Below, piece after piece: positions 38,124 through 39,906 of a DNA stretch of 64,000 bases. Every line of letters starts with the position of its first letter. The first letter of the stretch is position 1. Position numbers and translations under genes: made by a program. The notes under the pieces were generated by a model. It ran no database searches. It was not told the DNA's origin and saw only the letters and a program-made list of their open reading frames with translations. Source of the stretch: a phage; sequence record PZ452598.1, one strand, 5' to 3'.

Positions 38124-38417
38124 TTACCATTTATGATGATACGTATTTACGATACATTCAAGACCCAAAGGATTCTTGAAAATATCATATTCAAGAGGAC
38201 CTTTTTCTGTTTCAATAAAGAAATCAAAATTTACTGTATTAAATTTACGGTCTTCCTTTACTAATTTAACTTGAGAAGATGAACGATCAATGTAAACCTT
38301 TTCAACTTCAAAACACGTTAAAATGCCATAATCATCAATCAAGGCTTTAGCTGCTTCTTGATCATATTTATATCCATTTTCAACGGATGATACTTTCGCA
38401 TAAAGAATCATCATCAA
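38124..38417 (-). CDS. hypothetical protein (97 aa)
   Basis: ORF. Confidence 0.45.
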   Translation of the reverse strand: MMMILYAKVSSVENGYKYDQEAAKALIDDYGILTCFEVEKVYIDRSSSQVKLVKEDRKFNTVNFDFFIETEKGPLEYDIFKNPLGLECIVNTYHHKW

Positions 38418-38824
38418 CCTCTATCAACAATAGCATGAGTATGGGCATTTACGATTTGCCACCAGTCGAAACGATTGGAACCATAATCTGGTTTATTTTC
38501 ATTTTCTTTAATGATATCACGCAGTTTATCTTCTGTTTCAGCATACGCAATTAAATCATCATATCCACCACAAGGATAATAATTATCACCTGCGAATAAA
38601 AGAAAATTTACCTTAGATGGATTTACGTAATAATGGTCTTTAGGATATTTAGTTCCTCTCCAATCAGTTACTTCAACATAACGGTAAGAAAATCCATTTT
38701 TACTTTCAATCCAACTCCACGCTTCAAAAGGAGTATTAAAAACTTTATCAGGTATTAAATTACCTTCAAAATGAGAAGGATTTGCATAATCCCCGGCATA
38801 AACATAATATTCGTTAATACTCAT
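38414..38824 (-). CDS. hypothetical protein (136 aa)
   Basis: ORF, Tyr/Trp-rich. Confidence 0.45.
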   Translation of the reverse strand: MSINEYYVYAGDYANPSHFEGNLIPDKVFNTPFEAWSWIESKNGFSYRYVEVTDWRGTKYPKDHYYVNPSKVNFLLFAGDNYYPCGGYDDLIAYAETEDKLRDIIKENENKPDYGSNRFDWWQIVNAHTHAIVDRG

Positions 38825-39010
38825 TTATTCACCTTTAGAAATTTTATCCATAACGATAGCAATTAAACCAATTAAAAATGCTACTACAAGTGAAAACACA
38901 TTTTCTGCTGTAGTTAATAATCCGCATATAAATCCAACAAACATTGAAAAACTAAAAGCAGAAGCAGAAATTGCAATAGCAACATTTCGAATTAATTCAC
39001 AGCGTTTCAT
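38825..39010 (-). CDS. small membrane protein (61 aa)
   Basis: two hydrophobic helices. Confidence 0.45.
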   Translation of the reverse strand: MKRCELIRNVAIAISASAFSFSMFVGFICGLLTTAENVFSLVVAFLIGLIAIVMDKISKGE

Positions 39011-39028
39011 TTTATTCTCCTCAGTAGT

Positions 39029-39066
39029 TGATAGGGTAATAGTATCACAGCTAAAACCCTATGTAA
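39029..39066 (-). promoter_or_regulatory. early promoter GTTTAC-N17/18-TACTAT with conserved leader
   Basis: plus tgtaaac at 39059-39065 and atagta upstream. Confidence 0.5.
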
Positions 39067-39086
39067 ACAACTTTGTGAAATATTTA

Positions 39087-39374
39087 TTACAAAAGATTTT
39101 TAGCAATAATCTTGAGATGTGCCGCAGAAATGTGTTTAGCTTTAAACAACGCAGTTTCTTCAGCAGGAGAGATAACGATTGTAGCACCATCCTTTTTAGC
39201 AGACCACCCATCACCTAGGTAAACAGTACCTTTGATTTCTTCGCCATCAACCAGACTAATCATTGGTTTACCTTCTCGTCCTTTATTTGCTTTAATAACT
39301 TCAGAAGTAAGAGTAGCTTCGGTAATGGTAGAAACCGGGGTAGTTGTAGAAGTAAATTCTTTAAATGTTTTCAT
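39087..39374 (-). CDS. ipI: internal protein I (95 aa) with capsid-targeting N-terminus
   Basis: N-terminal MKTFKEFTST... related to MKTYQEFIAEA of ipII/ipIII; size 95 aa. Confidence 0.75.
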   Translation of the reverse strand: MKTFKEFTSTTTPVSTITEATLTSEVIKANKGREGKPMISLVDGEEIKGTVYLGDGWSAKKDGATIVISPAEETALFKAKHISAAHLKIIAKNLL

Positions 39375-39395
39375 TTTTATTTTCCTAATTAATTT

Positions 39396-39440
39396 TGATG
39401 AGGTAATAGTATCACTACCTCATCAGTATGTAAACAACTT
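39396..39440 (-). promoter_or_regulatory. early promoter upstream of ipI with perfect 10-bp inverted repeat TGATGAGGTA-N10-TACCTCATCA enclosing the -10
   Basis: arms 39396-39405 and 39416-39425; -35 gtaaac at 39430-39435. Confidence 0.5.
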
Positions 39441-39447
39441 TGTGAAA

Positions 39448-39906
39448 TTATTTTAAATCATCTGCCCAATCGAGTTTAAGAGGCTCTTTGTATTCACGAT
39501 CTAATACGACCGGAATTTGTACATCACCGCTAAATGATAAGGGCCCAACATTATAAGACAATGTTATATGCGGTGTGTAATCATCAAAATCATGTGTAGC
39601 ACCTAGTGCCCGCGCATACATGTGTCGACAGCGCAGATATTCAGAATCTAGCACAAGTACAAGAGTCGATCCATCTTGTGTTTTCCATACTTCTAAATGT
39701 CCAGAAGAAGCTACTTCAAAACTTCCACTCGATGGAACATATGGAACATTTACTCTTGAATAACATATAGTCGAATGAATTTTTTCTCTAGGAACTGGAT
39801 TAGGAACACGTAAAGAGCGCTGAAGTTCTTCCAGCGCATCAAGTGTTAATTCTGAAAACTTAGCTGCTACATAAAGACCCGTTGAAAAGTCTTTAAATTC
39901 CATCAT
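39448..39906 (-). CDS. 57B: 2H-phosphoesterase-like protein 57B (152 aa); the T4 homolog is the anti-CBASS nuclease Acb1
   Basis: two H-x-T/S motifs ([17 protein letters not shown]) typical of 2H phosphoesterases; position next to 57A. Confidence 0.7.

Follow-up and report, generated by a model that had tools for sequence, protein, structure and literature searches.

The window analysed here, a 64,000-nucleotide stretch of phage DNA (record PZ452598.1), is 100% identical to phage T4 (AF158101/NC_000866) across positions 37900-40200, and the block under study is the T4 gene series 57B(acb1)-ipI-trna.4-trna.3-trna.2, which has been mapped before (Table 1). All five ORFs lie on the minus strand, at the positions and with the lengths that the original prediction had given. 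Its three uncharacterized ORFs of 61, 136 and 97 aa correspond to trna.4, trna.3 and trna.2, respectively, the 97-aa version of the last (38124-38417) using a TTG start; ATG/TTG starts upstream of the annotated one give proteins of 96-97 aa. A gap of 73 nt separates acb1 from ipI, and the junctions within trna.4/trna.3/trna.2 measure 0 to 2 nt. These tight junctions, together with homologues of trna.3 in 768 and of trna.2 in 804 phage records, identify the ORFs as genes and not chance ORFs.

Table 1 Features of the acb1-ipI-trna.4-trna.3-trna.2 region (positions in the window).
Feature	Position	Strand	Basis or remark
tRNA-Gln, first gene of the T4 tRNA cluster	37953..38026	(-)	ARAGORN and GenBank annotation
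Middle promoter PM2, between trna.2 and tRNA-Gln	38096..38122	(-)	X03016 annotation mapped
trna.2, 95 aa from annotated second ATG	38124..38411	(-)	GenBank
Late promoter PL2 (perfect TATAAATA), inside trna.2	38365..38372	(-)	Sequence; X03016 PL2
trna.3, 136-aa ORF	38414-38824	(-)	ORF; GenBank gene
trna.3 C-terminal domain, aa 70-136	38417..38617	(-)	PF26894 'Phage_T4_Y07C'
trna.3 N-terminal domain, aa 1-68	38621..38824	(-)	Hypervariable, horizontally exchanged allele
trna.4, 61-aa protein, two predicted transmembrane helices	38825..39010	(-)	ORF; phrog_1692
Early promoter PE1, 5' of trna.4	39039..39067	(-)	Promoter scan; = PE1 in X03016
ipI, internal protein I precursor, 95 aa	39087..39374	(-)	Pfam IPI_T4 PF11634; T4 identity
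Early promoter PE2, 5' of ipI	39406..39434	(-)	Promoter scan; = PE2 in X03016
57B = acb1, 152-aa 2H phosphoesterase, cleaves CBASS cyclic oligonucleotides	39448..39906	(-)	Pfam, PDB, publication

The assignment of 57B as an Acb1-type phosphodiesterase with two H-x-T/S motifs was confirmed by its match to the Pfam family Acb1 (PF23474; 2.7e-60, 202.7 bits against a cutoff of 27 bits), which extends over residues 9-150 and the full length of the model (positions 1-144 of 144), and by its match to the Acb1 structure PDB 7T26 (4.2e-62). In the alignment to 7T26, the motifs H44-S-T46 and H113-I-T115 pair with HTT and HIT, and they coincide with the published catalytic tetrad H44/T46/H113/T115 (PMC9117128). 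The histidines on which the original prediction depended are present, and the neighbouring genes are conserved and expressed. 57B is more than an Acb1 homologue: it is T4 Acb1 itself, the founding member, as is already known, since anti-CBASS cleavage of cyclic oligonucleotides was published for exactly this protein (Hobbs et al. 2022, PMC9117128). There is no difference between 57B and the Acb1 represented by PF23474 and PDB 7T26/7T27, 7T26 being the solved FBB1 homologue. In HIDEN-SEQ, transposon insertions in 57B were depleted, with lower read counts, on a CBASS host. The N-terminus of 57B (MMEFKDF) faintly resembles the capsid-targeting peptide of ipI; this resemblance is not kept in Krischvirus or Acinetobacter Acb1, and cleavage at this N-terminus is unlikely because the solved Acb1 chain and the Pfam model both have their first positions aligned with residues 9-19.

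The adjoining ipI is 100% identical to T4 ipI and matches IPI_T4 (PF11634; 7.3e-54, 180.1 bits, cutoff 25 bits) with residues 20-95 over model positions 1-76 of 76, preceded by the capsid-targeting sequence MKTFKEF at the N-terminus. IPI is packaged in the head via this peptide and then injected with the DNA, and the injected mature protein has been published to block the type IV restriction enzyme GmrSD. The gene occupies a variable internal-protein (IP) slot between 57B and trna.4, and the slot genes of relatives, fifteen proteins from six Tevenvirinae/Marfavirus phages, all start with MK(T/S)(Y/F)xEF. This peptide is absent from Trna.4, Trna.3 and Trna.2, which are therefore not internal proteins. 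Both the proximity of ipI to 57B and the action of IPI against type IV restriction, as stated in the original prediction, are in the literature, and Hobbs et al. (2022, PMC9117128) pointed out the acb1/ipI adjacency as in an anti-defence island. No new system was found here.

An early promoter predicted at 39029-39066 was recovered as a consensus match (39067..39039) equal to PE1 of X03016, the GenBank record 'Bacteriophage T4 tRNA region'. PE1 and the near-identical PE2 (TTTACA-17-TACTAT with TG extension) lie inside a 54-nt direct repeat whose copies (39028-39081 and 39395-39448) are 81% identical, and each is overlapped by a hairpin, with a z-score of -2.8 at PE1, where it was earlier annotated as a possible ipI terminator, and of -4.9 at PE2. 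The genes trna.4-trna.3-trna.2 form a compact unit behind PE1, the transcript of which continues into the tRNA genes. Both trna.2 and trna.3 are early at the RNA and protein levels, and trna.4 is early at the RNA level only, its protein not being detected. 57B is expressed as middle RNA and late protein, and its co-location with the cassette does not amount to co-regulation, as the two differ in temporal class and in transcription unit. All three cassette genes are non-essential on E. coli K-12, since under transposon saturation 23 of 25, 39 of 40 and, for trna.4, 16 of 17 TA sites carried insertions.

The order of the cassette is the same in the five genera checked (Tequatro-, Mosig-, Dhaka-, Gelderland- and Marfavirus), with trna.4 homologues (39-100% identity) occupying a corresponding position in five genera. 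A looser arrangement is seen in the Erwinia phage Cronus (Roskildevirus), where only a stand-alone PF26894 module follows 57B and a Trna.2 homologue with 27% identity is encoded among the tRNA genes. The cassette forms a syntenic block that is conserved and not a variable island, with variation confined to the IP slot and the N-terminal domain of Trna.3. When compared to the anti-defence islands cited in PMC9117128, the locus shares the adjacency of two validated counter-defence genes, acb1 and ipI, and trna.4, trna.3 and trna.2 are likewise small, early and non-essential neighbours; unlike in such islands, these three genes are stably present between relatives, and the transcription of 57B is separate and of the middle/late class.

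The new observation at this locus is that Trna.3 has two domains, a conserved C-terminal 65-aa PF26894 module and an exchanged N-terminal half. In a comparison with Tequatrovirus SA20RB, the block encoding the N-domain shows 35-58% nucleotide identity between sharp borders, with flanks at 92-100%, and the T4 N-domain was not found in SA20RB by tblastn. The N-domain allele of YUEEL01 is 95% identical to that of Dhakavirus WG01, and an allele with 92% identity is common to a Tequatrovirus and a Dhakavirus whose adjoining Trna.2 proteins share only 48% identity. In Gelderlandvirus Melville the N-domain is absent and the C-domain is encoded alone. Trna.3 is at least 80% identical to the T4 protein in 128 of the 768 records, compared to 653 of 804 for Trna.2. 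Within the cassette, an arms-race signature is confined to the N-domain. The exchange of this domain resembles the polymorphic IP locus of T-even phages, located 200 bp further upstream, in that unrelated or very divergent alleles replace one another with sharp boundaries in otherwise near-identical genomes and cross genera. It differs in that half a gene is exchanged and in that the product is cytoplasmic and early instead of packaged.

The C-domain of Trna.3 is the namesake of PF26894, and its motif (FLLFAGDxYYPxGGxxD ... DWWxIVD in Trna.3 residues 70-136) is common to more than 1300 proteins. A profile of the module (A3) scores 88.6 bits on the ORF in the window, and the homologues carry precomputed PF26894 annotations. 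Most members are single-module proteins of 60-80 aa, as in Melville and hundreds of metagenomic phages, to which Trna.3 adds its variable N-terminal domain. The only invariant columns are F8, G17, G18, D21 and W52; as family-wide conservation is limited to F, G, GG, D, W and YY, the module lacks a catalytic set, and these columns were considered together with the acidic pI (4.7-5.1) to point to a binder and not an enzyme. The Acb2, Tad1 and Tad2 sponges are likewise small, acidic, widespread in phages and conserved in aromatic and glycine residues without a catalytic set. No sequence or fold similarity to these sponges was found, and the comparison is one of analogy, not membership. In seven loci with stand-alone PF26894 genes, these lie within runs of small early-type ORFs, with no consistent partner gene but with neighbours including RtcB, Thy1, a primase-polymerase, UvrD and a weak Acb2/Tad1 hairpin match.

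Given the position of the cassette, its products could serve the downstream tRNA cluster, e.g. in processing, stabilization or protection from anticodon nucleases. In addition to the T4 arrangement, an unannotated tRNA-Met and tRNA-Arg were located with ARAGORN about 1 kb downstream of the cassette in Dhakavirus. Common descent could account for such synteny, and T4-like phages of Acinetobacter carry tRNA genes after 57B but no cassette. Furthermore, the tRNAs of T4 are provided with a middle and a late promoter of their own (PM2 and PL2), six of the seven stand-alone PF26894 loci have no tRNA within 6 kb, and searches of the cassette with Pfam, NCBIfam and PADLOC revealed neither an RNA-binding nor an enzymatic domain. 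A tRNA-linked role is accordingly judged quite improbable.

None of the three neighbours scored above threshold in NCBIfam, PADLOC or, even with E<=10 allowed, Pfam. Comparison with solved structures by sequence yielded no match either, also when a C-module profile of 83 sequences was used, and a BFVD structure search returned only uncharacterized phage proteins; no likeness to a known inhibitor, sponge or defence protein was found. Trna.4 matches phrog_1692, a family without assigned function (6e-35), and is strongly hydrophobic (GRAVY 1.22). As an early, conserved protein of 61 aa with two hydrophobic helices, accompanied in the Melville cassette by a second small membrane ORF, it could together with its partners modify the inner membrane in superinfection exclusion or lysis timing, like Imm, Sp and RI of T4. 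Against such an envelope function, Trna.3 and Trna.2 are acidic, soluble proteins, no similarity to the Imm, Sp or RI families was found, and the allele exchange in Trna.3 would be left unexplained, which together make it very unlikely. For Trna.2, a match to TusC (13 bits, cutoff 94 bits) was taken as chance, and the predicted structure is of low confidence. A 2026 paper lists Trna.2 as enriched in pull-downs of the defence protein DRT1, and its authors did not take it further; T4 is still restricted by DRT1, and Trna.2 is therefore not an effective inhibitor of it.

We tentatively favour, at somewhat less than an even chance, a counter-defence role for at least one of the three products, as host-directed accessory proteins acting by stoichiometric binding and not by catalysis. 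This reading draws on the cassette having its own early promoter, on the early expression of trna.2 and trna.3 as RNA and protein, on dispensability on K-12, on the exchanged hypervariable N-domain of Trna.3, on the enrichment of Trna.2 with DRT1, and on a base rate, as the non-essential T4 genes tk.4, 30.3, nrdC.5 and ipIII have recently been shown to be counter-defence genes. Trna.3 might then be a two-part adaptor, in which the acidic PF26894 module would supply a common binding or oligomerization function and the swappable N-domain would direct it specifically to a host target that differs between strains. Trna.2 would be a small acidic protein that associates with DRT1, a reverse-transcriptase defence protein, in its active, DNA-bearing form, and Trna.4, as a two-helix inner-membrane protein, may localize or complement Trna.3 or Trna.2. 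The original prediction that the neighbours are candidate inhibitors is reasonable in view of early expression, dispensability, N-domain exchange and the DRT1 pull-down, but is an unproven case of guilt by association. Several findings count against counter-defence: the conserved synteny, unlike the fast turnover typical of anti-defence islands, the separate temporal class of 57B, the restriction of T4 by DRT1, the low-confidence Trna.2 model, the lack of likeness to known inhibitors and the absence of the cassette from reported transposon-library hits. The latter concerns T4 libraries challenged with RexAB, RnlAB, CBASS, DarTG1 and DarTG2, where none of the reported hits is trna.4, trna.3 or trna.2, RnlAB having one significant gene and DarTG2 a single hit. 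Resampling of two independently made T4 libraries, which is not a defence challenge, gave an adjusted p of 1.0 for all three genes.

The same lack of hits in five defence challenges, together with early expression and dispensability on K-12, would also fit a more general host take-over, in which the early proteins bind core machinery (transcription, translation, nucleoid or envelope), as many small non-essential early proteins of T4 do; synteny across genera is more in keeping with a conserved host target than with a patchy defence system. General take-over leaves the sharply bounded cross-genus exchange of the Trna.3 N-domain unexplained, however, and the association of Trna.2 with DRT1 points to immunity, and we regard it as somewhat unlikely. 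A more specific version of the counter-defence reading holds that trna.4-trna.3-trna.2 is a conserved counter-defence cassette in which PF26894 modules, a widespread class in phages, antagonize immunity as binders or small-molecule sponges and are retargeted by the N-domain to polymorphic host immune proteins, with Trna.2 engaging DRT1-type systems; this combination we consider unlikely. About half of the T4 genes have no assigned function, and a principled shortlist is useful since several non-essential ones recently proved to be counter-defence genes. The initially vague hypothesis about the neighbours has been narrowed to the signature of the Trna.3 N-domain, the PF26894 family and DRT1 as candidate partner of Trna.2. 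As PF26894 is large, a function found for the T4 C-domain would apply to more than a thousand proteins.

The two halves of Trna.3 were also compared to each other. A shallow alignment gave no signal of homology between the N- and C-domains, while the 83-sequence C-module profile gave an hhalign probability of 72.7% (E 3.2e-5, 59 columns) at the permissive setting -mact 0.05; run as an HMM, the same profile scored the N-domains at E >= 0.07. As judged from these profile comparisons, the N-domain may be a degenerate second copy of the PF26894 module. An apparent multi-module protein, P0082 (2031 aa, 26 partial module matches), was rejected as a low-complexity repeat also matching many unrelated Pfam families. 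In Marfavirus, an extra stand-alone PF26894 copy is located directly upstream.

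Window positions 37900-40200 match phage T4 (AF158101, NC_000866 and further isolates) at 100% identity, and for this stretch GenBank gives the minus-strand gene order 57A, 57B, ipI, trna.4, trna.3, trna.2, tRNA-Gln, tRNA-Leu, tRNA-Gly and further genes. At this level of sequence identity the genes recognised in the original prediction are the T4 genes themselves, and the "T4 homolog" with which 57B had been compared is 57B itself; the ORF list together with the raw sequence reproduced all predicted ORF coordinates. Earlier literature covers these genes, their promoters, the functions of acb1 (57B) and ipI and a remark on their island-like location; the three neighbours carry annotations, fall into function-unknown Pfam families and are ordinary kinds of phage accessory gene. 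Added here are the domain architecture and allele exchange of Trna.3, the breadth of Pfam family PF26894 (Phage_T4_Y07C) and a lead from Trna.2 to DRT1, which give a sharper hypothesis for the trna.4-trna.3-trna.2 cassette.

Features in and around the segment (window positions), with TA sites carrying insertions after transposon saturation of T4 on K-12
Feature	Position	Strand	Description	TA sites with insertions
57B	39448-39906	minus	152 aa	35/36
ipI	39087-39374	minus	95 aa	24/24
trna.4	38825-39010	minus	61 aa	16/17
trna.3	38414-38824	minus	136 aa	39/40
trna.2	38124-38417 (TTG start); 38124-38411 (annotated ATG)	minus	97 aa; 95 aa	23/25
PE1	39067..39039		TTTACA-17-TACTAT, TG extension	
PE2	39434..39406		twin promoter upstream of ipI	
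Direct repeat, PE1 and PE2 copies	39028-39081; 39395-39448		54 nt, 81% identical	
Hairpin over PE1	39020-39075	minus	-14.8 kcal/mol, z -2.8	
Hairpin over PE2	39387-39442	minus	-17.4 kcal/mol, z -4.9	
Late promoter	38365-38372	minus	perfect T4 match, TATAAATA	
Middle promoter	38096-38122	minus	between trna.2 and tRNA-Gln	
Repeat, 57B and ipI starts	39886-39906; 39354-39374		25 nt, 76% identity	
tRNA	37456-37529		tRNA-Met (CAT) by ARAGORN	

57B matched the Pfam Acb1 family (PF23474, 2.7e-60) and the solved Acb1 of Erwinia phage FBB1 (PDB 7T26, 4e-62). The two predicted H-x-T/S motifs were located at H44-S-T46 and H113-I-T115, opposite HTT and HIT of 7T26; H44, T46, H113 and T115 form the catalytic tetrad of Acb1, and T4 Acb1 H44A/H113A served as the dead control (Hobbs et al. 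2022, PMC9117128). Acb1 was discovered in T4 through activity-guided fractionation, IPI is an inhibitor of GmrSD, and the adjoining of acb1 and ipI was described as "consistent with" anti-defence islands (PMC9117128); the pairing of anti-CBASS Acb1 with a counter-defence ipI was thus correctly predicted, yet published before. A 2025 transposon study found 57B to be non-essential on K-12, with lower read counts on a CBASS host. The Acb1 protein is classed as late in T4. 57B opens with seven codons (MMEFKDF) similar to the capsid-targeting beginning of ipI (MKTFKEF); Acb1 starts in other Tevenvirinae read MKF.DF or MKTEDF, and those of Krischvirus and Acinetobacter phages differ. The likeness is probably due to chance, since residues 9-19 already pair with the beginnings of both the Pfam model and the solved Acb1 chain, and position 10 is not Glu.

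ipI matched Pfam IPI_T4 (PF11634, 7.3e-54). In six phages from Tevenvirinae and Marfavirus, all genes between 57B and trna.4 (one to four per phage) begin with the capsid-targeting peptide MK(T/S)(Y/F)xEF and continue into unrelated protein bodies. Judged by these gene contents, the stretch is a polymorphic internal-protein locus, and another of its occupants, Bas37_0260, inhibits McrBC (HIDEN-SEQ preprint). The peptide is absent from Trna.4, Trna.3 and Trna.2, which are therefore not packaged internal proteins.

The cassette is tightly packed, with the trna.3 ATG directly following the trna.4 stop (TAA) and the trna.3 stop (TGA) abutting or overlapping the trna.2 starts in the raw sequence. 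An early promoter had been proposed at 39029-39066, and it was recovered along with a twin found by promoter scan; both lie within a direct repeat and are PE1 and PE2 of GenBank X03016, "Bacteriophage T4 tRNA region". As the generic scan overall gave no excess (11 sites vs 12.5 in shuffles), the case for the promoters lies in their repeat and published mapping rather than in the number of sites. In a time-resolved T4 omics study, trna.2 and trna.3 were early as both RNA and protein and trna.4 was early as RNA, with its protein not detected, while 57B was middle as RNA and late as protein; 57B and the cassette are thus separate expression units. Hairpins overlap the spacer and -10 region of PE1 and PE2, with stems that pair well in each copy despite their unlike sequences. 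X03016 annotates them as potential terminators, and read-through control or RNA processing are possible roles.

By tblastn, 768 phage records contain Trna.3 and 804 contain Trna.2; Acb1 occurs in 1472. The order gp1 - 57A - 57B - [internal proteins] - trna.4 - trna.3 - trna.2 - (0-2 extra ORFs) - tRNA genes is conserved in Tequatrovirus (SA20RB, YUEEL01), Mosigvirus (Shf125875), Dhakavirus (EcWhh-1, WG01), Gelderlandvirus (Melville) and Marfavirus (VAC36), with a looser form in Erwinia phage Cronus, where a stand-alone C-module follows 57B and a Trna.2 relative lies amid the tRNAs. Krischvirus has 57B and lacks both cassette and tRNAs. The neighbouring ORFs are accordingly real genes as proposed, conserved in relatives and expressed, and conservation together with protein detection rules out spurious ORFs. 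Synteny is also the one point in favour of a tRNA-linked role for the cassette, which appears quite improbable: tRNA clusters exist without it (57B and tRNAs occur in one Acinetobacter T4-like phage that lacks the cassette), homologues of the PF26894 module lie far from tRNAs, and the tRNAs have their own promoters. A late promoter within the trna.2 coding sequence and a middle promoter before tRNA-Gln, both annotated in X03016, make middle- and late-phase transcription of the tRNA cluster possible independently of the cassette.

The two-domain anatomy of Trna.3 is new in this analysis. In an alignment of 17 homologues the N-terminal half was variable and the C-terminal half (NFLLFAGDNYYPxGGYxDL ... 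FDWWQIVNAxTHxIV) highly conserved, and AlphaFold2 predicted two small alpha/beta domains (mean pLDDT 78.7, pTM 0.48), here the N-domain (aa 1-68) and the C-module (aa 70-136). Searched with a profile, 1.84 billion representative proteins yielded 393 clusters (E<=1e-3), of which nearly all match profile positions 68-131 only; matches had a median length of 77 aa, and of 143 full-domain hits, 118 have the domain starting no later than residue 10. A further search, with an 83-sequence profile, retrieved 1333 proteins; among the matches listed, all carry precomputed PF26894 and are annotated as "hypothetical". Family-wide, F8, G17, G18, D21 and W52 are invariant and G10, Y13 and Y14 nearly so. Since the conserved columns hold no His, Cys, Ser, Lys or Arg set suggestive of catalysis and the T4 C-domain is acidic (pI 4.7), we infer that the module works by binding, not catalysis. 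One apparent relative, a metagenomic protein of 2031 aa with 26 partial matches to the YYPxGG half, was rejected as a low-complexity repeat artefact because it matched many unrelated Pfam families without discrete domains.

The C-module also stands alone. Salmonella phage Melville encodes it as a 70-aa ORF (67% identity to T4), with a separate 61-aa membrane ORF (locus L004, 3319-3504) in place of the N-domain, its cassette thus including two small membrane proteins and the module. At seven metagenomic loci, stand-alone PF26894 members sit in runs of small ORFs beside replication or nucleotide-metabolism genes; no partner gene recurs across the seven, and six have no tRNA within 6 kb. On one 116-kb phage contig (L011, 5435-7450) the gene lies between those for an AlkB-like 2OG-Fe(II) oxygenase and an RtcB RNA ligase, an arrangement absent from the other six. 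Klebsiella phage VAC36 carries an extra stand-alone module (L005, 2949-3134; E 1.4e-10) directly upstream of its two-domain Trna.3 homologue, which fits tandem duplication as the source of the two-domain protein. The N-domain gave no signal against the C-module with a shallow alignment; with a deep profile, hhalign gave a probability of 72.7% (E 3.2e-5, 59 columns, permissive -mact 0.05), and N-domains scored E of at least 0.07 when that profile was run as an HMM.

The N-domain is, to judge from sequence comparisons, an exchanged allele, a result new in this analysis. In 60-nt windows, T4 and SA20RB share 91-100% identity from 40140 down to 38820, 35-58% over the sharply bounded N-domain (38580-38820, codons 1 to ~80), 82-88% over the C-domain (38400-38580) and 95-100% below 38400. 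The SA20RB proteins gp1, 57A, 57B, IPI, Trna.4 and Trna.2 are 95-100% identical to those of T4 and the Trna.3 C-domain 86%, while the T4 N-domain was not detected in SA20RB by tblastn. In YUEEL01, with neighbour genes at 94-100% to T4, Trna.3 shares 62% identity with T4 against 92% with WG01 (N-domain 95%), whereas Trna.2 shares 94% with T4 and just 48% with WG01. The genes beside this common allele are ~50-85% identical between YUEEL01 and WG01. Identity to T4 of >=80% is retained by Trna.3 in 128/768 records and by Trna.2 in 653/804. The internal-protein locus 200 bp away shows the same mosaic pattern, which would be expected of a domain meeting a polymorphic host target.

All five genes are non-essential on K-12 by transposon saturation (table). 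For T4 challenged with RexAB, RnlAB, CBASS, DarTG1 and DarTG2, the reported hits are rIIA/B, dmd, 57B, 30.3 and tk.4, with trna.2, trna.3 and trna.4 absent from them; the RnlAB table header gives one significant gene, and DarTG2 yielded a single hit. All three genes had adjusted p = 1.0 in a resampling comparison of two independently made T4 libraries, which is not a defence challenge. General host take-over by the cassette proteins would fit both the conserved synteny and this absence from the reported hits, but leaves the Trna.3 allele exchange unexplained and is rather unlikely.

In a 2026 DRT1 paper, only Inh and Trna.2 among the proteins of T4 showed significant enrichment with wild-type DRT1 versus a reverse-transcriptase-dead mutant; Trna.2 was left aside, partly for seeming poor conservation in a 23-phage set, unlike its wide distribution in our larger collection. 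As DRT1 restricts T4, Trna.2 does not inhibit it effectively; Trna.2 may bind the DNA adduct, antagonise DRT1 in part or be a bystander. Because of the allele exchange, early timing, dispensability, DRT1 link and recent record of T4 accessory genes, we tentatively favour a reading in which the cassette products would counter defence systems by binding, Trna.3 acting as an adaptor that can be retargeted. A more far-reaching view, with the cassette a conserved counter-defence unit and PF26894 a new widespread antagonist fold, is unlikely.

Trna.4 (phrog_1692, a function-unknown family) has two hydrophobic helices in 61 aa (GRAVY 1.22); a membrane or superinfection role led by this protein is highly doubtful. 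Further downstream, the tRNA called as tRNA-Met by ARAGORN is tRNA-Ile in the T4 record. tRNA-Ile genes with a CAT anticodon are often labelled tRNA-Met by such tools.
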